64,000 nucleotides of DNA, from the NCBI GenBank assembly GCA_963662545.2, contig CAXXLL010000002.1, forward strand, positions 1,600,001 through 1,664,000, in the 5' to 3' direction. Position 1 is the stretch's first letter. Each line of letters starts with the position of its first letter. The DNA is from Gammaproteobacteria bacterium (GTDB taxonomy: Bacteria > Pseudomonadota > Gammaproteobacteria > Ga0077536). The notes beneath the pieces were generated by a model that was not told where the DNA came from, did no database searches, and worked only from the letters and a program-made list of their open reading frames with translations. Below are positions 2,566-41,425 of this stretch, in pieces. A program made the translations under genes and the position numbers.

Positions 2566-4458
<1,893 letters not shown>

Positions 4459-14651: not shown

Positions 14652-16640
14652 ATGCCGAGAACACGCGTGGGCCGACCTCCAATCCTCATGACTGTACGCG
14701 GCGTTACCAAACCGCTACAGCAATGGGCGGCTGACAACGGGCTCTAAAGGATCCCCACGAATTCATACGAATTCAGCCTGGCCGGTGATTAAGGCGTTGA
14801 GTTGTGGAAAGGCGCTTTCGAGGTCAGCGCGCGACAGTTTAAAGCGGTGACTGCGCCACAGCTGATGTCCCAAAAAAGGTAGAGACAACACCGGTCGTCG
14901 TCGTTCGGTATTCGCCTGAAAATGGCGTGCCCACTGTTTGGCTTGCGCGGCAAGGCCGGTAATCCAAAGGACGAGGCTCGCTAATAGCGCGATGAGCAGC
15001 AAGATCTCAAGGCGTTTCGTATCGGTGCACCGTGCATAGCGTAAGGCGAAGCCCCAACGATGGTTTTTGAGGTCCCGAAAGGCTTCTTCAATTTGCATAC
15101 GTTGAGCGTAAGCGCGCATGATTTTGTTGCCGCTACCGCGAGCATACGGTAAGGAGGTAGCGAGCAGCCAGGGAGCGCGGTGTAAGCGACGATATAAGCG
15201 GCCATTGGTACCGTAACTTTTGCGTTTCGCGTGTCGTCCCGGTGCGCGATGATAGGCACGCACGAGATAGAGCCGACACCAGTAACGATGGCGTTTGGAC
15301 AGGCAGCGTTGACCGATATGTTGAACCTTGGGCGTCGCTTGCGGGTAAAGCGAATGAACGTAGCACCAGCGTCCAGTCTCGGGTTTGAAGTACTTGATGG
15401 TATTTCGGATGCGTCCGATCCAATCCCAGCCCAATGCTTCGACCGCTCTAAACCAGGGGCCACGGAAGCCGGCATCGGTGACGACGATGGGGCACACCTC
15501 ACGGGGTAGTATTCGATGAAGGGTTTTCAGGAACAGGCGATGGATTCGGGGGTTATTATAGCGCCGTAGCGGATGCACTTCCTCGTACAGCGTGATGGCT
15601 CGACCGGCGATGGGGACAGCCGCTCTTAAGATGAGCATCTCTCGTTCAAGCTCGCAATCGGCCCAATCTACAATGATGAGCGGGCGCGCTATCCCTGACA
15701 ACACAGTGCGGGCCAGGGCGGCGTAGATGCCGTGTCGTTCTTGCTGAAGATGACGGTTGCCAAGTCAGGCGGTCTACGGCTTTGATGTGATGTTTGACGA
15801 AAGCTGAGCCGCTGCGATGTCGTCCTAGGTGTGTCAATGCCAGCTTGCCACCATCGAGTAGTGCGACGACTACCCGGAGCGTGGCATCGAGTCGCGCCCG
15901 ATGTCCGATGACGGCATTGCGCTCGCACCATTTTTTTAACAAGCTAATAGCGTGCATGCTGCTGCTCCTGACCTTAATGATTGTGTGGTAACGACCATTA
16001 GATCAGGCGGCAGCAGGCACGTCGATCATCTAACTGTTTGTATTCTTTGCATGAAACGTCTTAAATCGTGGGGATACATCAGCAAGGGCTACACCCCCAG
16101 TCCATTCGCAGACGACTGAAAAAGGGCGCAACCCCAGCGGAAGCGGTTGCCAAAGTTCAAAGCAGAACCCGACTCATTACCATTAACGGTAAGACGCGTT
16201 CGCTTGCCGAATGGCTGCGGCATTACAACCGCAACGACGTGACATTCTATTGGCGTATCGCCCGGGGCTATTCCGAGCAGGATGCAATTACTACCCAGCT
16301 ACAAAAACGAAAATCTGCTTTACCTCGTGCCGATAAATACGACACACCGCTTAAGGGTCGATCGGGCGTTTATTCCATTCGATGCAAGTCAACCAAGCGA
16401 TACTATATTGGAAGCAGCACAAATCTGCTGAATACGAAGACGCGTTGGTCATCTAACCTAAATGCCCAAAGCAAACGCTCATTGCCGAAGCGATTGTTGC
16501 CCGATTTGCAGAAACACGGTGCCGACAGCTTTGAGTTCCACGTACTCACGTTCTGCGAACCCGACCGCATACAATCAAGAAAAGCGACATTGTTACGCCA
16601 AGCACAAAGGAAACATCTGCGTAGGCTCTATAACCCTTGA
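14652..16640 (+). pseudogene. GIY-YIG endonuclease gene (homing-endonuclease-like) interrupted by an IS4-family element
   Basis: Rejoined frame MPRTRVGRPPILMTVRGVTKPLQQWAADNG|LHPQSIRRR...ITINGKTRSLAEW...SGVYSIRCKSTKRYYIGSS. Confidence 0.75.
14744..16082 (-). mobile_element. IS4-family (IS10-like) element with frameshifted transposase (14763..15957)
   Basis: IR CTAAAGGATCCCCACGA / TCGTGGGGATACATCAG; near-DR CAACGGGCT / CAAGGGCT; VDW, TDAGF and Y..RMQIEE.FRDLK motifs; extra base near 15765. Confidence 0.88.
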
Positions 16641-16922
16641 AAACTCACCGTTCGGCACTAATCGCTTTGGCCAGAGGGTGAGAAAGAGGAATAAGAAGCC
16701 GCCGATCAAGCTCACGTCCGCTTAGCCCGAAAGCAGCCATCATCGGCGATGCAAATCCCACACTTGATCATGACGGCTTACGGCCAACGGACGAAACCGC
16801 TATCGCGGTAGTGGTTAGCGAGGTTGTGGCGGAGTAGTAGTCAGTTCAGTTAGCGAGATGGGCCCGCCCTGTGTTGAGGTTGTTATCGGAAAACAACGAC
16901 CCACAACACAGGAGACAGGCCC

Positions 16923-17804
16923 ATGACCCAGTCTAACAATTCCATCAGCCCTTTACGTCAACGCATGATCGACGACATGACCTTGCGTCAGCTGCAGGAG
17001 AAAACGCAGAGCGGATATCTGCGTTCCGTCAAACGCTTGACGAAGTTTCTGGGTCGCTCACCGGATAGCGCGTCAGCCGAAGACCTGCGCGCGTTTCAAA
17101 AACAGTTGGTTGAACACGGCGCGTCGAGCGCGACCATCAATGCCACGATCCGCGGTCTACGGTTCTTCTTCGAGACCACCTTGGAACGCCCAGCGGCACT
17201 CAAACGGATGAGTCCGGTGCGGGTGCCGGAGCGCTTGCCGGTAGTCTTGAGCGTTGCAGACGTCACCCGCTTACTAGACGCCGCGCCCAATCTGAAGTCG
17301 AAAGCCGCGCTGTCGGTGGCCTACGGTGCCGGCTTACGCGCCAGCGAAGTCTGCCACCTCAAAATCACCGACATCGACAGTGAACGGATGATTATCCGGG
17401 TCGAGCAGGGTAAAGGTTCGCGCGACCGTCAAGCGATGCTCTCGCCCGCTTTGTTAGGTTTACTGCGCGCCTGGTGGCGCGACGGTCATCGCCGCGGCAA
17501 GATGCTCCCCAAGGGTTGGCTGTTCCCCGGCAGGGATCCCGTTGACCCGCTCTCACCTCGTCAACTCAATCGCATGTGTCACTTCGCCGCGGCCACCGCC
17601 GAGTTGGATAAACAGATCTCCATGCACACCCTACGCCACAGTTTCGCGACGCACTTGCTCGAACAGCAGATCGATATCCGGGTCATCCAGGTATTACTTG
17701 GCCACAAGAAGCTGACCACCACGGCGCGCTATGCCCATGTCGCAACGAAGGTGTTGAGCGACGTACAAAGTCCCCTCGACCGGCTGAGCTTACCGACGCC
17801 GTAA
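16923..17804 (+). CDS. Tyrosine recombinase / site-specific integrase
   Basis: YGAGLRASE, GKG, HTLRHSFATHLLE, LLGH, TARY catalytic residues; N-terminal SAM-like domain. Confidence 0.95.
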   Translation: MTQSNNSISPLRQRMIDDMTLRQLQEKTQSGYLRSVKRLTKFLGRSPDSASAEDLRAFQKQLVEHGASSATINATIRGLRFFFETTLERPAALKRMSPVRVPERLPVVLSVADVTRLLDAAPNLKSKAALSVAYGAGLRASEVCHLKITDIDSERMIIRVEQGKGSRDRQAMLSPALLGLLRAWWRDGHRRGKMLPKGWLFPGRDPVDPLSPRQLNRMCHFAAATAELDKQISMHTLRHSFATHLLEQQIDIRVIQVLLGHKKLTTTARYAHVATKVLSDVQSPLDRLSLPTP

Positions 17805-17805
17805 C

Positions 17806-18960
17806 GTGGCGCGGCCACCGCTCGAGGTGGCAGATATTTTTAGACGCGACGGCGCGACCTGGCGTCAAGCGCATGCCGGTCATATCAGCCTCGGCCAACT
17901 CAAGGTCATGTCTGCCATCGAACACTGCCGCACCGAGGCGCTCGGCGGGCACCTGTTGCATTGCGAGCCGTGCGATGCAGAGCGTATTGCCTATAACTCG
18001 TGCAGGAACCGCCATTGTCCGAAATGTCAGGGACGTAAAGCAGCGCAATGGCTCGAACACCGTCAAGCAGAGCTGCTACCGGTTGAGTATTACCATGTCG
18101 TGTTCACTCTACCGGCCCAGATCGCCGAGTTTGCCTATCAGAATAAAGCCGTGGTCTATGACCTGCTGCTCAGAGTGTCTGCCCAGACACTCCTCATCAT
18201 CGCCGCCGATCCGAAACACCTGGGCGCCCAGATCGCAATGACCTCCGTGCTGCATACCTGGGGCTCGGCACTCACCCATCATCCGCATGTCCATTGCATC
18301 GTGCCCGGCGGCGGACTCGATGGCGAGACCTGGGTGCCGTGCAAACGGGGGTTCTTCCTGCCGGTACGGGTGTTGTCGCGACTGTTCCGGCGCTTGTTTC
18401 TGGAGCGGCTCCACCAGGCACACCGTGACGGGCAGCTACACTTCTGCGGTGACTTGGCGACTCTCGCCAACCGCGCATCGTTCGACCAGTATCTGGCACC
18501 ATTGGCGCAAACCGATTGGTTCGTCTATGCCAAACAACCTTTTGCCGGACCCCAAGCCGTGCTCGCTTATCTGTCGCGCTACACCCACCGCCTCGCCATC
18601 TCCAACCATCGGCTCATCGCCCATGATGCGCGTGGCGTCACCTTCCAATGGCAGGACTATCGCAGCAAACGCCGGGTGCGCTACCAACCCATGACGCTCG
18701 CCACCGATGAGTTCATCCGGCGCTTCCTGAACCACGTCTTACCCAGGGGCTTCCATCGCATCCGTCATTACGGCTTGCTCGCCAATCCGGTGCGACGCGA
18801 TAACCTGGCCCGCTTGCGCCGAGCACTCGATATGCACCACGAGCCCGACGTCGAAACACAACCAATTACGACACCTTCGCCGACCTTCGTGTGTCGAACC
18901 TGTGGCGCGCCCTTACAGATCGTCGAGATCCTAAACCCGAGAACTCGGTCACCGCCATGA
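17806..18960 (+). CDS. IS91-family (Y2/HUH) transposase
   Basis: YNSCRNRHCPKCQ zinc-binding domain, HPHVH, YLSRY, RIRHYG. Confidence 0.95.
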   Translation: MARPPLEVADIFRRDGATWRQAHAGHISLGQLKVMSAIEHCRTEALGGHLLHCEPCDAERIAYNSCRNRHCPKCQGRKAAQWLEHRQAELLPVEYYHVVFTLPAQIAEFAYQNKAVVYDLLLRVSAQTLLIIAADPKHLGAQIAMTSVLHTWGSALTHHPHVHCIVPGGGLDGETWVPCKRGFFLPVRVLSRLFRRLFLERLHQAHRDGQLHFCGDLATLANRASFDQYLAPLAQTDWFVYAKQPFAGPQAVLAYLSRYTHRLAISNHRLIAHDARGVTFQWQDYRSKRRVRYQPMTLATDEFIRRFLNHVLPRGFHRIRHYGLLANPVRRDNLARLRRALDMHHEPDVETQPITTPSPTFVCRTCGAPLQIVEILNPRTRSPP

Positions 18961-19370
18961 CATCGGCTTCTACTGACAACAATGACAGGCAGCACGCAGC
19001 GGTGTTGGCGATCTCTTATTGCCTCAGCCGTGGCAGACACCCGAACCGCGCGATCAAAACCAACCGATCACTCGCTAAAACCGCTCTCAAAAGCATCGAT
19101 AGCGCCGACATCGGACTTCGAATCGCCGCGCACCACCACACCGTCGACCCACTGCCCTAAACAATCCCCATAGCCACGCCCCGCGGTTTCCTCCCCTGGG
19201 CGTTATCGAACATCCGCCTCAACGCTGTCGCAGAACCGCGCCCTTGTGCCGTTGCGGGTGTCCAATAACCCTAACCATGAGCGGATCCGTATGGTGTGTG
19301 TGGTTTGTAATTTGTGTTCCTTTGATGGCGGCCTATTCTTAACAATAGAAAAACGTATGAGAATGGCGTT

Positions 19371-20336
19371 ATGCGAAAACTAGCACTCTGTGCGTTTTGC
19401 GTGTTGTGCGTAGCGTGTACGACTTCTTACCAACCAAATCGCCAAGTCGTAGTTCCTCCAGTTCATAACGACAAGATTGACCCAGCCAGGTCATCTCGGT
19501 ATATCCCGAGCCAGGAAGAAGAAGAAAAAGCGAAGGCGCGCCCTGCTGAAAAAGCTACGGTAAGCCTTATTGAACTGGTCGCGACCCGGACGGCGGTGGA
19601 TGCGTCGAGATACACGTTCGACCTCGTCGTGGAGCTCGCGCCCCAACTCGCGGGCTTCGATCCCGACGTGGCCCATGGAACGGGCACTGGGACGCTTCGG
19701 GGCGCTCGACGTGGCGCGTTGGGCTGCATCAAGGCAGGGGCATGGATGGATATTGGCAGTGGCCACTTTGTTGTCCTCGGGATCCTGCTCTCTCCAGCCT
19801 GCGCTGTTATCGGCGGGTTGGTGGGAGCCGCCTCCGCTGAGTCGAAAGAAGACGCCGCAGCCCGTATGATCGAGGCGCTGAGCAAGACGGCAGCCGACCT
19901 CGGGTATCCTGAAGAGCTGCCCCGCCTCCTGGCGATGGAGCTTCAGGCGAACTCAATCTACCGAATCCACTCCGGGGGTGGACGCGAGACGAGCGGTGCT
20001 GGACAGGAGGAGACACCCAACGCCTCGATCCACGTCCGCATAACCGAGTACGGTCTGACCCGCTTTGGGGTCGGGGCCTACTTTCAGCTGCAGCTCTCCG
20101 CCGTCGTTTGCGTCACCGCAAACGAGACTGGCGAGGCACTCTCGTTCGAGAAGCTGGCGGTGCGTTCCGATGAATTTTACCTGACGGAATCGGGCGCAAG
20201 ATCATCACACTCATTCTTAGAGGCCCTCACGACCGCGCTCACCAGAAAACTGGCCACCTCTGCCGAGGAGGCGTTCGGCCATCTGGTTTCACTCGGGGAT
20301 AAGCCGTCCTGCTCATGGCAAGACGGTCCAACCTGA
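19371..20336 (+). CDS. Hypothetical lipoprotein
   Basis: Lipobox-like CVAC after a hydrophobic signal; 321-aa ORF. Confidence 0.65.
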   Translation: MRKLALCAFCVLCVACTTSYQPNRQVVVPPVHNDKIDPARSSRYIPSQEEEEKAKARPAEKATVSLIELVATRTAVDASRYTFDLVVELAPQLAGFDPDVAHGTGTGTLRGARRGALGCIKAGAWMDIGSGHFVVLGILLSPACAVIGGLVGAASAESKEDAAARMIEALSKTAADLGYPEELPRLLAMELQANSIYRIHSGGGRETSGAGQEETPNASIHVRITEYGLTRFGVGAYFQLQLSAVVCVTANETGEALSFEKLAVRSDEFYLTESGARSSHSFLEALTTALTRKLATSAEEAFGHLVSLGDKPSCSWQDGPT

Positions 20337-20410
20337 GGGCGAAGTTCAGATTGCCGCGGAATCTCTGATGCACCCTGATATCTTTTCGCTATCGTCGACT
20401 AAGAACGAAC

Positions 20411-20730
20411 GACCGCTTCGGGTCGTCAGCGGCCGGATCGTGGCAACACAGCACTGCTCTAGATTACGTCTGCAATGCGCTCGTAAGCGGCCATTCAGCT
20501 TGTTTAGAAAACATCGCTGGAGGTGACTTCGGCTTCCGGCCGAGGCTGTGTCAAAAGTCGAAAAATGGAGCCCGCCGCGAAAATTTTCCCCACTTAGGTA
20601 AGATGAACGGGTCGATGTTATGCACGATTGATTAAGGGAACGCACCGCCTAAGGTAGGCGAATCGGGTTAAACTTCTCCCACTTTCAAAATTCGAAAATA
20701 CTTTTGACACAGCCTCGGCCAATAACAGAC
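20411..20730 (+). repeat. Tripartite site copy S3 (A-33-B-35-C; MITE in C)
   Basis: A GACCGCT-TCGGGTCGTC-AGCGGCC at 20411; B GTCTGCA-ATGCGCTCGTA-AGCGGCC at 20468; C starts at 20528. Confidence 0.85.
20542..20716. mobile_element. MITE, 175 bp, IS1182-like ends
   Basis: IR GAGGCTGTGTCAAAAG / CTTTTGACACAGCCTC; 4-bp DR GGCC; near-identical to 41074..41240. Confidence 0.88.
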
Positions 20731-20849
20731 CTTATGAGTTGTTGCTCTGAGCTCGATTATTCGACGGGCATCGATTTGAAGTGCGCGCGGGTGTCTAACG
20801 GAGTTACTCTTGACAGTGGGCATACAGCAATAGTGGCGAGGAGTCGAAT

Positions 20850-21716
20850 ATGGCGCGCGTTGGAGTGATAAAGGAGATTTGGCGTTTTCCGGTGAAATCG
20901 ATGCAGGGCGACACAATCGAGCGCTGCAAGGTCACTCAAACCGGCGTCGCGGGTGACCGGTGCTGGGCGATGCGCGACGAGGGACGGGCGGAGATTACAT
21001 GGGGCAAGCGTTATCCGCAGCTCATGCTGTGCTCGGCGCGGTATCGCGCCGAGCCGAGCGATGATGCGATCACACCGGTCGTTATCACGTTCCCCGACGG
21101 GCAAACGATCGGCAGCGACGATGCGCGGGTCAACGCTAAACTGAGCGAATTGATCGAGCGTGATGCGACGTTGCGCGCAATCGAACCAGCTAGCAATCTC
21201 GAATTCTACAAGCGCCACAAACCGGACGAACAAGTATTCCTTGAGGAAATGACGGAGCTTTTCGCGCGCGAGCCGGGCGAACCGGTACCGGAGATGTCTC
21301 TGTTCCCAGAGGTGCTGATGGATCATGTCGCGGTCCCCGGCACTTTTTTCGACAATGAGGAGATCCATATGATCACCACGGCGTCGATGGACTACATGCG
21401 CAGGAAAAATCCCGGCGCGAACTGGGATATCCGGCGTTTTCGTCCGAACTTCTACATCGAGACCGACCCGGCGGTAACGGGCCTGGTCGAAAACGACTGG
21501 GTCGGCAAGACTCTGGCGATCGGCTCGGCAACCCTCGAGATCACCATGCCGACGGTGCGTTGCGGTATGACCGTAAGACCACAAGCCGATATCGAATATG
21601 ACAAATCGATATTGCGCACTGTGGTGAAGGAAGGCGACCAATGCCTTGGCGTTGGCGCCCATGTGCGCGTGCCCGGTGAAATCAAACAGGGCGACACGGT
21701 TGAACTGAACGACTAA
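20850..21716 (+). CDS. MOSC-domain protein
   Basis: IWRFPVKSM.G, GDR.WA, RRFRPN, RC.M. Confidence 0.92.
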   Translation: MARVGVIKEIWRFPVKSMQGDTIERCKVTQTGVAGDRCWAMRDEGRAEITWGKRYPQLMLCSARYRAEPSDDAITPVVITFPDGQTIGSDDARVNAKLSELIERDATLRAIEPASNLEFYKRHKPDEQVFLEEMTELFAREPGEPVPEMSLFPEVLMDHVAVPGTFFDNEEIHMITTASMDYMRRKNPGANWDIRRFRPNFYIETDPAVTGLVENDWVGKTLAIGSATLEITMPTVRCGMTVRPQADIEYDKSILRTVVKEGDQCLGVGAHVRVPGEIKQGDTVELND

Positions 21717-21855
21717 CAATTGGACGCGCTGCGCCACTTGGCAGACAAAGAGCGGCGCAATGATATCGAATCACAGCGGCGTCGGAGCAACGCCTGTGTA
21801 ATATGTCGGAGACGGCTATCCGTCCCCGTTCGCACAACGAACTTGGAGAGCAGAT

Positions 21856-22563
21856 ATGGCGGAGCAAGCCCCCAAGAAAATCGACCTCGCAAGCGTCGAT
21901 CATGTTATGAAGACCACGCGCACGGTCCGTCTGCGCCTCGACCTCGAGCGATCCGTTCCGGAATCACTGATCGAAGAAGCGATCGAAGTGGCGCTCCAGG
22001 CACCGACCGGAGCGAATTCTCAGACCTGGCGCTTCGTCGTAGTCACGGATGAACATTTACGCTCGGGTATAGCTGACCTGTATCGCCAGGGGGCGGAGCG
22101 TTACCTGGCCGGTGAAACCGGAGTAACGCGCACCGGCGTGGCCGTCGATAAACAGTACCCTGACGACGACCCGCGTCAGCAAAGAATGCCTCTAATCGTC
22201 AAATCGGCGGTCCATTTAATAGAAAATCTGCACCGCGTCCCCGTACACATCATGCTTTTCCTGGAAAACCGCTTCGACCACGAAGATGTCTTTACCCAAG
22301 GCTCCATGTGGGGGTCCATTCTACCGGCGGCCTGGTCGTTGATGCTGGCGCTCCGCGCGCGCGGAGTTGCGTCGGCCTGGACGACATTCACTCTGATGTA
22401 TGAAAAAGAGATCCAGGAACTTCTCGGCGTTCCTGCGCATTACACGCAGGCGGTACTGCTACCGGTCGCCTGGCTCAAGGGTGGCGATTTAAGACCCGCG
22501 AAACGCTTCCCGGCGCGCGATGTGACGTTCTGGAACGGCTGGGATAAACAGCGCGCTGAATAG
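21856..22563 (+). CDS. Nitroreductase family protein
   Basis: TTRTVR, QAPTGANSQTWRFVVV, LALRARG. Confidence 0.9.
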   Translation: MAEQAPKKIDLASVDHVMKTTRTVRLRLDLERSVPESLIEEAIEVALQAPTGANSQTWRFVVVTDEHLRSGIADLYRQGAERYLAGETGVTRTGVAVDKQYPDDDPRQQRMPLIVKSAVHLIENLHRVPVHIMLFLENRFDHEDVFTQGSMWGSILPAAWSLMLALRARGVASAWTTFTLMYEKEIQELLGVPAHYTQAVLLPVAWLKGGDLRPAKRFPARDVTFWNGWDKQRAE

Positions 22564-22616
22564 CCGCTAATGGTTTGAGGTCAGAGTACAAGAACCTACA
22601 AGGTCTGCTTAGGGTC

Positions 22617-24301
22617 CAGAGTGTGTGAAAACTCGGAATGAAGAGGAATCACGTCGAGAACTCCTCGTCAGACGCAACGCGGCGCGGTTACGACGGCCGC
22701 GCTCGCGGTCCAATGCGATCGGTTAGTTAATGGAACATTCCTTAGAACGGCCCCAGAAGCCGGCAGTGAAGCCGTGGATCAGGGAGTTTTCGAGGCCACA
22801 GAGGGTCTCATGCCGTCATCGCTTCGATGAGCGTAGCGACACCCAGTAGATTCATCACGCGTTTCATGTTGTAAGCGAGCACGTGCAGACTCATTTCCGT
22901 ACCAACGTGTTTCAGCGTGCGCATCTGGAAGTGGGTCGAACCCATCCAGGATTTGATCGTGCCAAATGGATGCTCGACCGTCTCTCGGCGGACACGCATA
23001 GGGTCAGGTTCACGATCCAATCGCGCCTGCACCGCTTCAACAACCGCTTCATGTTCCCAACGGCTGACGCGCCGGTATCGACCCGTTGTGCATTTAGATT
23101 TGATCGGGCAGCGGGGACACGCCGAACTCCAGTAGCGCCGGATCTGCTTGCCTTTCTCCACTCGGGTGAACCGGTAAATCAGTCGCTCACCGGCCGGGCA
23201 TTCATACGCATCCTCTTCGGGTTGGTAAATGAAGTCGCGCTTGCCAAACAAGCCCTTCGCCTGGTTACCCGAGGTCTGCGGTTTCGGCAGATAGGTCGTG
23301 ATGCCGGCTTTAGCGCACGCCAAGATCTCTTCGCCACTGAAGTACCCGCGATCCGCAACGACGGTCAACTCCTTCTTATCCAGCGCCTCTTTGGCTTTCT
23401 CCGACATGTTCGACAGTTGCGCCCGGTCATGACCTACGTTCGTCACTTCATGTGCCACAATCAGATGACTCTTCGTGTCGACCGCCGTCTGCACGTTGTA
23501 CCCCACCATGCCGCTGCCACGGCCGCTCGTCGCCATCGAGCGCGCGTCCGGGTCCGTCAGTGAGACCTGATGGTCCGGCGTCTCCTCGAGCCGTACCTCG
23601 AGCTTTTTTAGGCGGCCTATCTCTTCCTTCAGTACCTCGATCTTGTCCTTCAAACGCTGCGACTTGTCACCTGACACCGCACGCTCCTGGCGGTCGGCAC
23701 TTGCAATTTCCGCCAGGTACCGCTCAACGCTCTCGTCAATCTGCTGCAACCGACGTTTCAGCTTCGCCTTCGTGAAGTTCCGGTCACGGTTGTTTACCGC
23801 TTTGAACTTGCTGCCATCTATCGCCACGAAGGCTTCCGAAAACAGCTGCAGCTTACGGCACAGCATCACGAACTCCCGGCATACCAGACGAATGGCGTCA
23901 CCGTTATCTTTGCGGAAATCGGCAATGGTCTTGAAATCAGGCGCCAGACGACCCGTCAGCCACATCAGTTCCACGTTCCGCTGCGCCTCCCGTTCCAGGC
24001 GACGGCTCGATTGAACCCGGTTCAGGTAACCGTAGATATAGAGCTTCAGCATCGTCGCCGGGTGATACCCCGGTCGACCCGTCTCATGCGCATCGGTTCT
24101 GAAACTCAGACCTGACAGATCCAACTCATCGACGAACACATCGATGACCCGCACCGCACTCTCCTCAGCGACATAATCGTCCAGACACTCGGGAAACAGC
24201 GTTGTTTGGCGGCGGTCCGCGCCTTCAATGAACCCGCTCATCAACGACTCCCCAGGACCGAAAGAGTGATCTTATCTGATGCAGAGTTTTCACACACTCT
24301 G
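22617..24301 (-). mobile_element. IS1182-family insertion sequence
   Basis: Perfect 18-bp IR CAGAGTGTGTGAAAACTC; 4-bp DR GGTC. Confidence 0.95.
22808..24244 (-). CDS. IS1182 transposase
   Basis: GRPGYHP..MLKLYIYGY, PDFKTIADFR, TDPDAR, ADRGY, VEHPFGTIK. Confidence 0.95.
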   Translation of the reverse strand: MMSGFIEGADRRQTTLFPECLDDYVAEESAVRVIDVFVDELDLSGLSFRTDAHETGRPGYHPATMLKLYIYGYLNRVQSSRRLEREAQRNVELMWLTGRLAPDFKTIADFRKDNGDAIRLVCREFVMLCRKLQLFSEAFVAIDGSKFKAVNNRDRNFTKAKLKRRLQQIDESVERYLAEIASADRQERAVSGDKSQRLKDKIEVLKEEIGRLKKLEVRLEETPDHQVSLTDPDARSMATSGRGSGMVGYNVQTAVDTKSHLIVAHEVTNVGHDRAQLSNMSEKAKEALDKKELTVVADRGYFSGEEILACAKAGITTYLPKPQTSGNQAKGLFGKRDFIYQPEEDAYECPAGERLIYRFTRVEKGKQIRRYWSSACPRCPIKSKCTTGRYRRVSRWEHEAVVEAVQARLDREPDPMRVRRETVEHPFGTIKSWMGSTHFQMRTLKHVGTEMSLHVLAYNMKRVMNLLGVATLIEAMTA

Positions 24302-24577
24302 GGTCGTGAGCTGCCTCCTCGCGGCAGTGCAGCACTGCTCTAAATTACGTCTGCAATGCGCTCGTAAGCGGTCGTCAAACAACGTTCGGCTGCGTGACCA
24401 TAGTGCAGGGCTGCAGTCGGCCACAAGCGGTCCTCAAACTCCCGCGGCATAGCACTCCGGTTACCACGAATTGACTTGGTAGAAGTGCAAAGTGGTAGGC
24501 TGGCTTCCCGCGCGGTATGGTTGCCCTGAAGCGCGCTTCCGGCTGTTATCTGCTCAGCGAGAAAGGGCTCATCCACT

Positions 24578-26278: not shown

Positions 26279-27059
26279 CAAGTTAAACGACTTTAAGTGA
26301 CAATTCCTGGATGAATCAATCATCCAGCCTCTACAAACGTCACAGATATCCACCTGCGATCATTCAATATGCTGTCTGGCTCTACCATCGATTCAATCTC
26401 AGCCACCGCGATATCGAAGATCTTCTGGCTGAACGTGGTATTGAAGTCAGTTATGAATCTGTTCGGTTGTGGTGCAACAAGTTTGGGCCGAAATACGCCA
26501 GGCGTCTGAAGCGTCGACACCAAGGATTCGGGGATACGTTCTTTATCGATGAAGTCTTCGTCAAGATCCGCGGCATCCAGCACTATTTGTGGCGCGCCGT
26601 CGATCAGGATGGAGAAATAGTCGATGTTTTCCTGCAGCGACGGCGTGACGGAGCGGCCGCTAAGCGCTTCTTCAAACGCGTATTGAAAAACCACCGATCT
26701 GAACCGAGAAAGATAGTGACGGATAAATTGAGAAGCTACGGTGTGGCCCACCGGGGCATGATCCCCAATACAACCCACGACACAGCGCAATACGCTAACA
26801 ATCGCGCCGAGCTTTCCCATCAGCCAACCCGTGTAAGAGAACGGGGCATGCGGCGCTTCAAATCGATGAAACAAGCCCAGCGCTTTTTGACAGTTCACGC
26901 GGCCGTCTACAATTTATTCAACCTTGGTCGTCACCTTGTTTCAGCGAAGACTTATCGGTTTTTTCGAATGCGTGCCTTTGCGCTTTGGGAGCAAGTTGCT
27001 GCGTAAAAGACAGATTCTGGTCAAGTACGTCCAGACAGAGAACTTAACTTGTCAGTACC
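26271..27059 (+). mobile_element. IS6-family insertion sequence
   Basis: IR GGTACTGACAAGTTAA / TTAACTTGTCAGTACC; no DR. Confidence 0.93.
26311..27006 (+). CDS. IS6 transposase
   Basis: HRYP..II..AVWLY, IDEVFVKI.G..YLWRAVD, TDK, NN.AE.SH. Confidence 0.95.
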   Translation: MNQSSSLYKRHRYPPAIIQYAVWLYHRFNLSHRDIEDLLAERGIEVSYESVRLWCNKFGPKYARRLKRRHQGFGDTFFIDEVFVKIRGIQHYLWRAVDQDGEIVDVFLQRRRDGAAAKRFFKRVLKNHRSEPRKIVTDKLRSYGVAHRGMIPNTTHDTAQYANNRAELSHQPTRVRERGMRRFKSMKQAQRFLTVHAAVYNLFNLGRHLVSAKTYRFFRMRAFALWEQVAA

Positions 27060-28734: not shown

Positions 28735-28816
28735 GTCCGCTCAGGATCGTCAGCGGCCTGATCGCGGCAGCGCAGCACTGTTCTAGATTACGTCTGCAAT
28801 GCGCTCGTAAGCGGAC
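28735..28816 (+). repeat. Tripartite site copy S6 (A-33-B)
   Basis: GTCCGCT-CAGGATCGTC-AGCGGCC ... GTCTGCAATGCGCTCGTAAGCGGAC. Confidence 0.85.
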
Positions 28817-29009
28817 TCGAGCGGCTTTGAACCCACCTTCTCGGCGGTCGCCGCAGCACCCATTATTAATGCTGTGCGTTCGCTACAGTTTCCTAAAATT
28901 ACCGTTAAATAAAATCGAAGGGCTTACAAAACACATGTCCTTGTTTATATTCATAGCAGGGTATTTCTGCCCGTACATTAACTGATAGACCGACAAGGGG
29001 AGAACCGTC

Positions 29010-31137: not shown

Positions 31138-31307
31138 GGCCTCGATGATACTCGCAGTGACCTTTCCCCAAAAAAAAGAATGTAGGAGAGTACCGGAATA
31201 TATGATCAGTGTTGGAATGAAAACGCCACCTAACAAGCGTTCGAGCGGACGTGACCGCGGATTCTTCTCAGCGGCCTAATCGCGGCAGCGCAGCACTAGT
31301 AACGATT

Positions 31308-32727
31308 CATAGGTCGGATCTTATAACCCGTTGAAAAGAGGGAACCAAAAGCGCTCCACCCGATCAGATCATGAAATCAACATCAATCAACATCATGATC
31401 TGGGAGTATCGGATGGAGCACAAACAAATTAGCACGGTGAGTCGTCAGTTAAAACGCACGCTAGGCGAGCGCACGCTCAACGATTTGGGGCGTGCAACGC
31501 GGTTCTGTCGGCGTGAACGGGAGATTACGCCGTTCCGTTTAGCGGTGAGCCTGATCGAAAGCTTCGGCGGGCACTCGGCGGGTTGCATTGCCGATATTCA
31601 ACGGGCTTTCAATGCCCTGTGCTCGACCACGGTGCGCTACAAACCGTTTCATAATCAGCTCGCTAAAAAGCAGTTTCCGATGTTTATGCAAGCGCTGCTG
31701 AGCGAATTGCTCAATGGCCTGGCCTGCGATGTCCTCCGATTCGAACCCAACAGCCCATTTGCGCAGTTTGACCACATCCGCATCCAGGACGGCACCTCGT
31801 TTGCGTTAAAACCGGCGCTGAAGGACAGCTTTCCCGGTCGCTTCACGACCGTGAGTCCCGCCGCGGTGGAACTCCATGCCGATCTCGACCTGCTCAGTGA
31901 GACCCTGAACGAGGTCGTACTCAGCCCTGACAGCTCAGCAGAGCGGCAGTTCTTGCCGGCGGTTGAAGAGGTCGCTGGCGGTTTGTTGCTGGCCGACCGT
32001 GGCTACTTCGCACGGCCTTACTTTGAAGCGCTCGACACCGCCGGCGGCCATTTCATCGTGCGCGCGGGTCAGGGCATCAATCCGCTGATCCTGTGCGCTC
32101 GTCAGACCCATGGGCGGCGGGTTAAACGCTTTGAGAATCAACGCTTGAAAGCGGTGGCATCGACGTTAAAGCGTTTCGACTGCCTCGACATGGTCGTGCA
32201 ATTCGACGGCGTGCAGGAACCTTGGACCTGTCGTTTAGTCGTGCACCCCAACCTCAAAGGCACAGCGCCTCGTTATCTCATCACCAATCTCGACGCCGCC
32301 ACCTTTACCCCCGAGCATGTCAGCGACGCGTATCGCTTGCGCTGGCAGGTAGAACTGCTCTTCAAAGAGTGGAAGTCTTACGCCAATCTACACGCCTTTG
32401 ATACCGCCAACCCGCACATCGCCGAAGGGCTTATCTGGGCCGCACTATGCGCCGCAACGCTGCAGCGCTATTGCGCTCATGTCACCGAGCGCTGGTTGAA
32501 CGTCGCCATCTCGACTCATACCGCGGCCAAGTGCATTCATCACGTGCTCGGTCCCATTCTCCATACGCTTATCCATCGGCCCCGCGCTTTACACCGACCG
32601 CTCGAACGCGCGTTGCGCTATTTGGCCAGCAACGCTCAGCGCGCAAAACCTGGCCGCGATTGCATTTCGGGACGACTCAAACTCGGCCTCCACCATGTTC
32701 ATGCGGCCGCTTAAGAACTAACCTATG
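31308..32727 (+). mobile_element. IS4-family insertion sequence
   Basis: Ends CATAGGTCGGATCTTA / TAAGAACTAACCTATG; 10-bp DR AGTAACGATT. Confidence 0.93.
31413..32714 (+). CDS. IS4 transposase
   Basis: QDGTS, LADRGY, YRLRWQVELLFKEWKS. Confidence 0.93.
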   Translation: MEHKQISTVSRQLKRTLGERTLNDLGRATRFCRREREITPFRLAVSLIESFGGHSAGCIADIQRAFNALCSTTVRYKPFHNQLAKKQFPMFMQALLSELLNGLACDVLRFEPNSPFAQFDHIRIQDGTSFALKPALKDSFPGRFTTVSPAAVELHADLDLLSETLNEVVLSPDSSAERQFLPAVEEVAGGLLLADRGYFARPYFEALDTAGGHFIVRAGQGINPLILCARQTHGRRVKRFENQRLKAVASTLKRFDCLDMVVQFDGVQEPWTCRLVVHPNLKGTAPRYLITNLDAATFTPEHVSDAYRLRWQVELLFKEWKSYANLHAFDTANPHIAEGLIWAALCAATLQRYCAHVTERWLNVAISTHTAAKCIHHVLGPILHTLIHRPRALHRPLERALRYLASNAQRAKPGRDCISGRLKLGLHHVHAAA

Positions 32728-32809
32728 AGTAACGATTAGGTCTGCAATGGGCTCGTAAGCGGTCGTCCGATAGTTCGGGGGCGCGAGCAAGCGTTATGAG
32801 CCGTTCTAA

Positions 32810-34290: not shown

Positions 34291-35312
34291 GTCCGTTATG
34301 GGTGTGCGCCGTGCAAAGGCGGCGTTCTTCAGTGGGTGCAAGTCCCACCCGGCAACTGTCGCTCCAGCCGGAAGCAATCGGAGCAGTCATGGAGGTAACA
34401 AGATGGCTGAAGCCTTCGGTGTAGAGGGTCACTAGGTGACTTGGCGAGTGTGCAGGCCGTAAGGTGAGTGAACGCTGAGCAAGCCTCGAAAAGGACGATG
34501 CACGTGCCGACCGGTCAACCCCTATCGGGAAGGCTGAAAGGGCTGGGGAAGCGAGCGATGAGCGCACCCAGTCGGCGTGCCGGGGTAGTGGCGATGGCAT
34601 GTACACAGAGGAGAACGCGCGCAACACGGGAAGCCCGATGGCGTGGTCGGTCGTGGCGATCAACCGGAGACCGGTGACGGTCAGAGAGGGCGCTATGGGG
34701 TGGCGGAGAGGCCCGTAGTACTGAGGAAGCCGGGTAATGCTGGTGGAGGGAAGGGGCCTTAGTTCAAGACGGGCACTGAAAGCGGCAAAGCACAGGAGAT
34801 TGGGGCAACCCTAGGCAACTCCGGTAAGGTGCGGGCGCGGTGGAAGGCGTCACATGTTGAAGCGAAGGAAGAACCCGGATTGCGATCTGGGAAGCGAATG
34901 CCCACCCAAGTGGTGGCATTGGCGGTTGTGTGCAGAACGCTCGGTTCGTGCACGTCGGGATACACGGCCCGGTGTGGTGGGTCGGGTGAACTGCGGATGA
35001 CCTTTCGTGTGCCAAGGCATGAGTCTTGTCCGAGAGCCGGATGCGGTAGTTCCGCCTGTCCGGTTCGATGAGGAGGATGTGGAAACGGAGTGATGGTCCG
35101 GCTATTGAGGCACCGCCAGACGAAAGGGGCGGCAACAGATTGGCTGAACCTTAGACCACCGCGCCACATCCTTACTCTACCGATAGCCGCCTGATCGCGG
35201 CAGTGCAGCACCGCTAAAGTTTACGTCTGCAATGCGCTTGTAAGCGGTCGTCGAGTTGCTTCAAGCATCGAGTCGAGAGGGTACGACGACTTTCGACCAA
35301 CCAGAAGCGGTC
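34291..35312 (+). repeat. Tripartite site copy S8 (A split by the intron; B at 35225; C at 35285 with ACCA duplication)
   Basis: GTCCGTT-ATGGGT|CGAT-AGCCGCC, 33 nt, B, 35 nt, GACGACT-TTCGACCAACCAGA-AGCGGTC. Confidence 0.85.
34304..35180 (+). mobile_element. Group II intron lacking an RT ORF (877 nt)
   Basis: 5' GTGCG; domain V GAGCCGGATGCGGTAGTTCCGCCTGTCCGGTTC (~35034-35066); 3' end CTTACTCTAC; only a short remnant resembling an IEP N-terminus (HVEAKEEPG). Confidence 0.9.
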
Positions 35313-35967: not shown

Positions 35968-36272
35968 GACCGCTCAGGGTCGTGAGCCGCCCACTCACGG
36001 CAGTGCAGTACCGCTCCAAATCACGTCTGCAATACCCTCAATAGCGGTCGCCCACTAGCGTTCGGCGGAACGTTAGCCGAGCAGGTCAGCTCACGGCCGA
36101 GGCTGTGTGAAAACTCAAAAACGGGACGACGAAAATAAAAAATTCTCCACCAACATAGTAGTTAAGGCCGTTGAAAAGGGATCGACATTTCAATTAGATC
36201 CAATTTCGAGTGTAGTTCCCCCACTTTTGAAAAACCAAAATAGTTTTCACACAGCCTCGGCCATGATCGGTC
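35968..36272 (+). repeat. Tripartite site copy S9 (A-33-B-35-C; MITE in C)
   Basis: GACCGCT-CAGGGTCGTG-AGCCGCC; GTCTGCA-ATACCCTCAAT-AGCGGTC at 36025; GTCAGCT-CACGGCC|ATG-ATCGGTC. Confidence 0.85.
36099..36258. mobile_element. MITE, 160 bp, IS1182-like ends
   Basis: IR GAGGCTGTGTGAAAAC / GTTTTCACACAGCCTC; DR GGCC. Confidence 0.88.
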
Positions 36273-36347
36273 ATAAACATCTTCATACTTTGCAAAAGAA
36301 AACCCCGCGCTAAGGTGGAGCTTCGTATTCTGATAGCGGTCCGGCAT

Positions 36348-40935: not shown

Positions 40936-40949
40936 TGCATCGCAACAAG

Positions 40950-41254
40950 TCCGGTCGTTCCCGGTCTAATCGCGGCAGTGCAACACTGGTAAGGATTACG
41001 TCCGCAATCCTCTCGAAAGCGGTCGTCCAGTAGCGTTCGGCGGAACATTAGCGGAGCACGTCGGCTCACGGCCGAGGCTGTGTCAAAAGTCGAAAAATGG
41101 AGCCCGCTGCGAAAATTTTCCCCAATGCACGACTTAGATTGTTATGCACGATTGATTAAGGGAACACACCGCCTAAGGTAGGCAAATCGAGCTAAACTTC
41201 TCCCACTTTCAAAATTCAAAAATACTTTTGACACAGCCTCGGCCAGAAGCCGAC
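40950..41254 (+). repeat. Tripartite site copy S10 (partial A-33-B-35-C; MITE in C)
   Basis: B GTCCGCA-ATCCTCTCGAA-AGCGGTC at 41000; C GTCGGCT-CACGGCC|AGA-AGCCGAC at 41060. Confidence 0.85.
41074..41240. mobile_element. MITE, 167 bp, sibling of 20542..20716
   Basis: Same IRs, largely identical interior, DR GGCC. Confidence 0.88.
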
Positions 41255-41425
41255 ATCACGTCCCGAGTTCCACTACCTTTGACAGCACTATTGTCTGTCC
41301 GTCAGTGGCCCCGTTTCCTGAGAGAAAAGTGGGCGTGCACGCAGAGCCCGAACGAGTGTGTGCACAGTGGCTATACTTGGATCTGGTGCGCAGAAGTTCT
41401 GGCTGCGGGGGAGGAGTGTGTCGCG

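Follow-up and report, generated by a model that had tools for sequence, protein, structure and literature searches.

A site-specific IS91-family insertion sequence with a tyrosine recombinase gene and a two-sided target in the repeats of a gammaproteobacterial genome

Results

The element and its boundaries

The 64,000-nucleotide stretch of DNA analysed here (hereafter the window; positions 1600001-1664000 of contig C2 in a 5.58-Mb gammaproteobacterial genome of three contigs) carries an intact, autonomous insertion sequence (IS) of the IS91 family. It belongs to the subgroup in which a tyrosine recombinase gene (int) lies just upstream of the transposase gene (tnp), occupies positions 16787-19277 of the plus strand (2,491 bp), and has both genes intact. 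Comparison with its relatives shows an explicit insertion rule: the element inserts directly after a dinucleotide that matches its own right tip (here CA, within CGGCCA) and two bases upstream of AGCGGNC. In the window genome this target recurs in a host repeat, D1, and the element is a site-specific parasite of these repeats, not a part of them.

The initial annotation had described an element made of tyrosine recombinase and IS91-type Y2-HUH transposase genes lying one nucleotide apart, and this observation is confirmed. The int gene (16923-17804, plus strand) encodes 293 amino acids, with catalytic residues R139, K164, H235, R238, H261 and Y270, and a single base (17805) separates it from tnp (17806-18960, plus strand), which starts with GTG and encodes a Y2-HUH transposase of 384 amino acids. 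The junctions read as first written. On the left (16786/16787), GACGGCTTACGGCCA is followed by ACGGACG, and on the right (19277/19278), CCCTAACCA is followed by TGAGCGGAT, with CCA common to the end of the left flank and the right tip.

The limits of the element come from comparison with a second copy in the same genome (copy 2, 98% identical), a third one (copy 3, ~85%) and a group of relatives at 69% identity. Similarity to copy 2 spans window positions 16781-19284, and the excess of 6 and 7 bases corresponds to a common target (CGGCCA and TGAGCGG). Copy 2 thus fixes the boundaries independently. The left half of the target (16772-16786, plus strand) consists of the arm GACGGCT (16772-16778) and the spacer bases TACGGCCA (16779-16786), and the right half (19278-19286, plus strand) of the variable TG and the arm AGCGGAT. 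Joining the flanks gives GACGGCT-TACGGCCATG-AGCGGAT, that is, the 7-10-7 sub-site (two 7-nucleotide arms around a 10-nucleotide spacer) that excision had been proposed to restore, with arms complementary at only 4/7 positions. The int product is also the only site-specific recombinase of the window, as had been claimed: a search with the PF00589 profile found it as the sole tyrosine recombinase within the window coordinates, and no serine recombinase (PF00239) mapped inside them. Several DDE transposases are present as well.

The predicted ends have the ter/ori layout known for IS91, IS801 and IS1294, with subterminal palindromes on both sides as is typical of the family, the right stem of the window copy being placed by position. 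The available excerpts of a 2026 study of IS91 (PMC13181058) describe one subterminal palindrome adjacent to the site of ter cleavage; at ori they describe subterminal palindromes, with a specific target directly bordering that end. Here, the ter-like left tip (16787-16809, plus strand) starts with a variable dinucleotide, AC, followed by GGACG and the hairpin ACCGC-TATC-GCGGT (16796-16809). Across related loci the stem is invariant and the loop varies, and GGAC-type bases precede the hairpin in nearly all of them, which gives the motif NN-GGAC(G/T)-AAACCGC-N3-6-GCGGT. A regular expression for the hairpin and its AAA lead matched 76/79 related loci; the hairpin was not matched in L029, L034 and L056, and the genes of the first two lie near a contig edge. 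On the right, a putative ori-like subterminal hairpin (19208-19263, plus strand) has arms GAACATCCGC and GCGGGTGTCC that pair at 8/10 positions; this stem is absent from the minimum-energy fold predicted for the window copy. In relatives the predicted fold of the right hairpin is strong (-17 to -31 kcal/mol), and its arms, although divergent in sequence from lineage to lineage, keep their pairing (for example GGACGCCGGCCC/GGGCCGGCGTCC in alphaproteobacterial relatives). Beyond this hairpin lie 10-14 terminal bases in the window copy and its relatives, here the 14 nucleotides AATAACCCTAACCA (19264-19277, plus strand), whose final CCA repeats the last bases of the left flank. About 90 nucleotides from the right tip, the conserved motif CGCGGTTTCC (19182-19191, plus strand) is found at the same place in gamma- and alphaproteobacterial relatives.

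Copies and relatives

Five related copies lie elsewhere in the genome (six in all), and within its subtype only the window copy has two intact genes. Copy 2 (C2:613111-615606) has three TGA stops in the integrase frame and a shortened transposase frame, and copy 3 (C2:627524-629838) has an open integrase frame and a broken transposase. The 69% relative is present three times with 99.7-100% mutual identity, twice on contig C3 and once at C2:623521-627523. The latter has another IS inside its integrase gene, and copy 3 stands head to tail exactly at its right tip. Two 100%-identical copies of the 69% relative also share, at C3:6563-6821 and at its minus-strand twin near C3:923.4 kb, ~125 nucleotides of nearly identical left flank, beyond which identity falls to 72-87%. 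This may reflect one-ended transposition with a co-mobilised flank, gene conversion, or simply two similar repeat copies.

Pairs of int and IS91-type genes had been said to occur in proteobacteria. We find them in 370 plasmid records at 60-80% DNA identity, mostly from rhizobia and Burkholderiales (85 in Sinorhizobium and 65 in Rhizobium), and public records annotate such pairs as "IS91 family transposase" and "site-specific integrase". Relatives on genome contigs numbered 205, and the best 80 of these 205 were taken for further comparison. A search for an orthologous empty site, in which the right flank (19278-20400) was compared with 40 relatives, gave short weak matches only and no empty site.

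The element junctions are also present in independent assemblies. Contigs from four studies cross one or both of them, in runs partly labelled as sponge metagenome: those of X1 and X10 cross the left junction (16613-16798, 0 differences) and the right one (19255-20300, 0-1 differences), and those of X14 cross the left junction (16696-16993). No RNA runs were listed among the runs containing the sequence.

A two-sided target

The insertion rule was derived from 24 distinct insertions with both flanks, found in the window genome, in two metagenome-assembled genomes (MAGs) of Arenicellales and in several alphaproteobacterial MAGs. The last two nucleotides of the left flank are those of the right tip of the element in 21/24 insertions, a number to be set against a mean of 7.6 and a maximum of 15 in 2000 permutations of the pairing, and one that overstates independence because copies within a family are related. 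The match classes are CA (8), GT (10), GC (3) and CC (1). Positions -4 to -3 match in 0/24 insertions. Three insertions lack the dinucleotide match: in two loci the right tip was placed on the motif alone, and the third has an aberrant left tip. Each lineage has its own final 6-8 bases of the left flank: CGGCCA is common to the window copy, copy 2, the 69% relatives and the Arenicellales copies, others have TCGACGT or TTTGCGC, and GGGTCG occurs in lineages seen only from the left. The right flank has the consensus NN-AGCGGNC, with A in 18, G in 18, C in 20, G in 17 and G in 18 of the 24 insertions at positions +3 to +7, and C in 17/24 at position +9.

The 7-nucleotide arms around the 10-nucleotide spacer are complementary at a mean of 3.1/7 positions, compared with 1.5 and 1.7 in shifted controls. 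Complementarity reaches 6/7 in some sites and is only 1-3/7 in the four Arenicellales sites, because of which the short two-sided motif is the essential target, the palindromic setting being common and not required. Insertion is oriented and produces no target duplication, as in other IS91-family elements: flanks are unlike on the two sides in all families examined, with 2-3 bases shared with the tip, and the dinucleotides at the two junctions were equal in 1/6 paired cases (rows read by eye). A specific target abutting ori is another family trait, and NN-AGCGGNC is longer than the usual tetranucleotide.

The first dinucleotide of the left tip varies among near-identical copies in two families. 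In the largest family, whose copies are at least 99% identical, left-tip dinucleotides are GA (4), AA (2), TA (2), AT, TG and CA, and right-flank dinucleotides are GA (5), AA (3), TG (2) and TA (1); 9/11 of the left dinucleotides fall within the right-flank set. In the Arenicellales family the left dinucleotide is AA in 5/5 copies, with AA in the right flank of 1/4.

Unoccupied sites were also searched in the window genome. CGGCCA and AGCGG are spaced by 1 or 2 nucleotides at 31 and 32 sites, versus 6-13 for other spacings. As the spacing of unoccupied sites is mostly 1-2 nucleotides and occupied ones have two variable bases on each side, insertion adds 2 nucleotides of uncertain assignment. 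The strict motif CGGCCANNAGCGG has 32 occurrences in the genome versus 7.2 expected from base composition, 7 of them downstream of a D1 core. The short pattern was not enriched over its control in an alphaproteobacterial MAG (134 vs 123). Integrase-less IS91 relatives were sought in the window genome as a control for the rule, and the candidates were decayed or of another subgroup.

A survey of the targets of homologous elements had been set beforehand as the test on which the reading could fail. It found the same ends and related target sequences, and the reading withstood it. We found no description of a target rule for integrase-carrying IS91 elements in open-access papers and preprints; the rule is given here in explicit two-sided form (a 2-nucleotide match to the right tip, a 2-nucleotide gap and AGCGGNC).

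The host repeats

The element lies at the 3' end of a copy of a ~125-nucleotide host repeat (16663-16786, plus strand), a variant of D1. This repeat is found at 9 other places in the genome with 78-90% identity, each copy ending at or near the equivalent of 16784-16788, and in two of these 9 the 69% relative of the element occupies the identical position. In another MAG (L014), a 75%-identical integrase also has the ~125-nucleotide repeat as its left flank.

The D1 unit itself is ~160 nucleotides long. BLAST places it at 115 positions in the genome, 106 of them with a recognisable core. The units cluster in the same orientation, as many as 39 of them over 135 kb, between blocks of accessory genes. 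Its consensus has AGCGGNC three times at ~60-nucleotide spacing, each forming the right arm of a 7-10-7 arrangement; these are evidently the sub-sites that had been called A, B and C, and the consensus of the third is gtCGGCtctCGGCCaagAGCGGac. The placement of the element precisely in a C sub-site was correctly called, since this is the third sub-site of the repeat unit. Copy 2 and the relative at C2:623521 sit in the C sub-site of standard D1 units, and all non-tandem copies of the element in the window genome lie in or beside repeat arrays. Within the window, further D1 units are found at 20416-20509, 24297-24390, 28740-28833, 35173-35266, 35973-36066 and 40948-41041.

We considered two readings of D1 and rejected both. 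It is not an integron attC site: the true attC sites of the host are unrelated full palindromes of ~112 nucleotides (GCCTAAC...GTTAGGC), and single-strand folds of D1 units show no global palindrome. Nor does it derive from the ends of the element, the resemblance being by eye only (local alignments against shuffles gave z values of -0.9 to 1.6). Rfam has no match in window positions 16400-21000. The genome has two genuine integron integrases, in the region C2:985242-997664 and at C3:1527239-1528180. The former comes with a classical attC array, whose sites (at least 10) are ~112 nucleotides long and spaced at 0.4-3.3 kb; none of the copies of the element identified in the genome is located near this array (C2:985-996 kb), and attC is not a target of this lineage. 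Upstream of the C3 integrase, 27 kb of sequence gave no repeats.

Other mobile DNA also invades these repeats. An IS5-like element of 1,687 bp (DUF772 and DDE domains) lies at 22635-24321, with its transposase open reading frame on the minus strand (22808-24244), and has many 100%-identical copies. A miniature derivative of ~190 nucleotides, with inverted repeats and the same tips, is present at 20526-20732, 36083-36274 and 41058-41256. Both insert in the spacers of D1 sub-sites, with apparent 4-bp duplications (GGTC or GGCC). In one repeat unit the A part (31272-31307) and the B part (32729-32773) are 1.4 kb apart with the gene of a 447-residue DDE transposase (31371-32714) between them, which looks like a further insertion into a repeat unit. 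In this genome the repeat arrays act as insertion hotspots for at least three types of mobile DNA and are not a cassette system run by the integrase described here.

The two proteins

The integrase matches Pfam Phage_integrase (145.7 bits) and SAM_4, an N-terminal SAM-like domain. Its six catalytic residues are kept in 33/33 relatives down to 56% identity (H235 in 32/33). By profile, the nearest characterised recombinase is the integron integrase IntI (TIGR02249 and structure 2A3V). The window protein nevertheless scores 174.1 bits with TIGR02249, below the cut-off of 265, and 101.6 with PRK15417 (cut-off 435), whereas the two true IntI of the genome reach 462.5 and 461.1 bits with the former model. 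The initial annotation had noted the absence of an IntI-specific insertion in this 293-residue protein, and the alignments agree: TIGR02249 matches in two pieces (5-174 and 238-315) with positions 175-237 unmatched, and the match to chain E of 2A3V (4e-30) is interrupted between chain residues 174 and 248. The protein therefore lacks the extra domain that IntI has in its catalytic domain. Neither does it sit beside attI or attC, as its gene lies inside the IS ends and is separated by ~600 kb of the same contig from the canonical attC array. It also falls below the cut-offs of XerD (167.1 vs 329.6) and XerC (166.4 vs 335.15), for which the genome has better candidates elsewhere. The available part of a preprint by Smyshlyaev et al. 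(10.1101/542381) assigns the recombinases carried by IS91 elements to an "Integron-like" subgroup that neighbours IntI and lacks its insertion, a description that the sequence of the window integrase fits.

The transposase is a typical Y2-HUH protein of the IS91 family with an N-terminal zinc-binding domain. It matches Y2_Tnp (PF04986, 218.3 bits), Zn_Tnp_IS91 (PF14319, 112.3 bits) and the NCBIfam IS91 transposase model NF033538 (423.1 bits, cut-off 125). Its zinc-binding cysteines start at residue 53, the HUH motif is H161-V-H163 (within HHPHVH at residue 158), and the two tyrosines are Y255 and Y259 (YLSRY at residue 255). No solved structure resembling it was found.

Discussion

Parasite or enzyme of the repeats

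The initial annotation left open whether the integrase is a parasite of the repeats or the enzyme that shuffles the gene blocks between them; the first option fits the distribution of D1 and of the integrase, and the second is not supported. D1 is present in both genomes of the same genus (11 and 6 matches), and a search for the window integrase at E<=1e-40 found it in neither. The integrase is found in three other genera of the family that have no D1 matches. The 5 genomes that carry the nearest relatives of the element gave no D1 match, with a query that does match where D1 is known. The element is thus a parasite of the repeats and not their shuffling enzyme, since D1 occurs in same-genus genomes where no integrase was found and close relatives of the element occur in genomes without D1. 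One caveat weighs against this conclusion: both genomes of the same genus are draft-quality MAGs with a completeness of 89% and 95% (20 and 150 contigs), and since repeated elements are often lost in assembly, this one may have been missed. If the integrase were instead the recombinase of the array, integron-like and without the IntI insertion, it would act on the A, B and C sub-sites to excise, insert and shuffle blocks, and one could point to AGCGGNC in every D1 sub-site, to non-tandem copies that all lie in or beside arrays, and to a block (20420-22634) found in three arrays. We hold this to be very improbable. Beyond the distribution just described, in every case the integrase gene accompanies tnp between defined IS ends, and a single copy of the subtype has both genes intact. 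The block, the one duplicated block examined, has three genome copies at 98.6% (also at C2:2578436 and C3:909953). One of its ends lies between sub-sites A and B and the other at the multicopy IS5-like element; as neither coincides with the crossover point of C, homologous recombination suffices to explain the block. This block carries a MOSC-domain gene and a nitroreductase gene, and the adjoining IS5-like element is reversed at the two other places. Least credible of all, to the point of being nearly negligible, is that an ordinary IS landed in a repeat sub-site by chance. Only 7/32 strict motifs lie in recognisable repeat units, so that the repeat as such is not required, but the same position and orientation recur in independent copies here, in the 69% relative and in other genomes.

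Which enzyme inserts the element

How the two enzymes share the work is less clear. We favour, at about an even chance and from sequence comparison, a relay in which the transposase would copy the element out and the integrase would insert it. The HUH transposase would nick next to the right-end hairpin and copy one strand by rolling-circle replication up to the left-end hairpin, releasing a single-stranded circle as with IS91. The integron-like recombinase would then select the bipartite site and join the circle to it by a single strand exchange needing only 2-3 shared bases, and replication would finish the insertion. A role for the integrase is suggested by the full set of catalytic residues in all 33 relatives, by its coupling to tnp one nucleotide away, and by a long, two-sided target with partly palindromic arms. 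The placement of IS91-borne recombinases next to IntI in the preprint points the same way, and left-tip dinucleotides that vary among copies at least 99% identical, in one family mostly (9/11) within the right-flank set, fit two cleavage positions 2 nucleotides apart. The insertion point lies 2 nucleotides inside the 10-nucleotide spacer, which is the cut expected of a tyrosine recombinase with a 6-bp overlap (the geometry of Cre and lambda Int), and for IntI, which acts on a folded single strand, one strand exchange with only 3 identical bases is enough for recombination. Integrase-less IS91, IS801 and IS1294, by comparison, need only a tetranucleotide on the ori side, according to the excerpts of PMC13181058.

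A fuller version of the relay, which we regard as rather unlikely, would also account for the left tips. The transposase would nick 5' of AGCGG in the flank and 5' of GGAC in the left tip, so that the circle carries the two flank bases of the donor, and the recombinase would cut 2 nucleotides upstream, after the shared dinucleotide, in both circle and target, with an exchange like that of IntI on attC. The overlap between left-tip and right-flank dinucleotides would follow if copy-out takes the two right-flank bases of the donor and integration cuts 2 nucleotides upstream, and two cleavage positions 2 nucleotides apart would mean two specificities, hence two enzymes. Were it true, the left tip of a daughter copy would bear the right-flank dinucleotide of its parent, a readable mark of pedigree, and the choice of target could be reprogrammed via the last bases of the element.

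Several observations weigh against insertion by the integrase. The IS91 transposase alone inserts a single-stranded circle beside an essential tetranucleotide, because of which a second enzyme is not strictly needed, and the upstream orf121 of IS91 only tunes (lowers) the frequency and sharpens the precision at ter (PMC13181058, excerpts). The four Arenicellales sites with poorly matched arms indicate that the short motif is enough, as expected for an HUH nick site, and the constant left dinucleotide of that family fits carry-over by the transposase only. The dinucleotide statistics come from small, related samples, and the overlap between the two sets could also reflect a shared base preference at the site. 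Finally, in the contigs of 4 runs over 15900-20300 none of the 8 joints listed skips 16787-19277 and no circle junction is among them, an absence that proves nothing about excision because the contigs are short.

These points lend substance to a mechanism with the transposase as sole inserting enzyme, to which we give somewhat less than an even chance. The HUH transposase would nick ori and ter, cut the target and transfer the strand; the two-sided target would be an extended nick site whose palindromic context only exposes single strands, and the integrase would be an accessory, acting in termination at the left end like Orf121 or in the resolution of tandems. Tandem copies do exist and would need resolving, the ends of the element have an HUH-type architecture, and orf121 has, in the same excerpts, an equivalent upstream, overlapping position and lowers one-ended transposition. 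Yet a mere binding factor would not need the full catalytic set found in all the integrase relatives, the target is much longer than in integrase-less members of the family and unlike theirs in being two-sided, and a fixed nick position does not predict a left-tip dinucleotide that varies among near-identical copies in two families.

If the recombinase does insert, as in the relay of the two enzymes, the element would naturally couple rolling-circle copy-out to single-strand integration of the integron type, and would form a compact system for site-specific insertion. Otherwise it remains a clear example of an HUH element whose target is unusually long. Either way, the ends and the two-sided target are now defined from this copy and its relatives, which also yield a prediction that separates the roles of the two enzymes. 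This matters because IS91-type elements move antibiotic-resistance and virulence genes, and we found no assigned mechanism for their tyrosine-recombinase subgroup in open-access papers and preprints.

Comparison with known systems

The element shares with IS91, IS801, IS1294 and IS1294b a Y2-HUH transposase with an N-terminal zinc domain, the lack of target duplication, a left ter palindrome, right ori palindromes and a specific sequence abutting ori, and with IS91 itself an upstream gene whose stop adjoins the transposase start (PMC13181058, excerpts). The upstream gene differs, being a 293-residue tyrosine recombinase here and the 121-residue Orf121 in IS91, and so does the target, which in IS91, IS801 and IS1294 is a tetranucleotide and here is two-sided, with ~15 specified bases and the 2-nucleotide tip match (same excerpts). 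Other IS91-family elements with an upstream integrase have the same gene pair in the same order, to which the window copy adds a defined target and end structure. To our knowledge, ISfinder lists such integrase-carrying members, and we know of no role established for their integrase; a search of open-access papers and preprints found nothing on the mechanism of the named members. The likeness to IntI lies in the profile match and in the proposed logic of single strand exchange, and the differences in a score below the family cut-off, the missing insertion, the lack of attI and a target that is not attC.

The habit of inserting in one orientation and at one set position within a repeated intergenic element that is partly palindromic is also shared with IS1397/ISKpn1, ISPpu9/ISPpu10 and IS621 at repetitive extragenic palindromic (REP) sequences, with IS1111-attC elements and with group IIC-attC introns (PMC1525189, in the part available). 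These are members of the IS3 or IS110 family or retroelements, whereas homing is here the property of an HUH element with a tyrosine recombinase. One table row of the same source has IS91 with 1/7 copies beside REP in Shigella.

Other features of the window

Mobile elements and genes of accessory metabolism are densely interspersed in the region from 14.7 to 42 kb of the window. Further transposase genes of DDE_Tnp_1 type and IS6/IS240 type lie at 14763-15704 and 26311-27006. In the whole window Rfam matches only two families: a thiamine pyrophosphate (TPP) riboswitch (RF00059, 68.4 bits) at 2439-2534, upstream of an open reading frame of 626 residues (2578-4458), and a piece of a group II intron (domains 1-4, RF02003, 100.8 bits) at 34330-34467 on the plus strand, beside which no intact reverse transcriptase open reading frame was noticed. 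Just upstream of the element, a GIY-YIG open reading frame resembling group I intron endonucleases (16068-16640; 48 bits, below the cut-off) precedes the ~125-nucleotide repeat (16663-16786), and this module of GIY-YIG gene and repeat has at least three copies in the genome with 81-87% identity (including C2:606542 and C3:385592).

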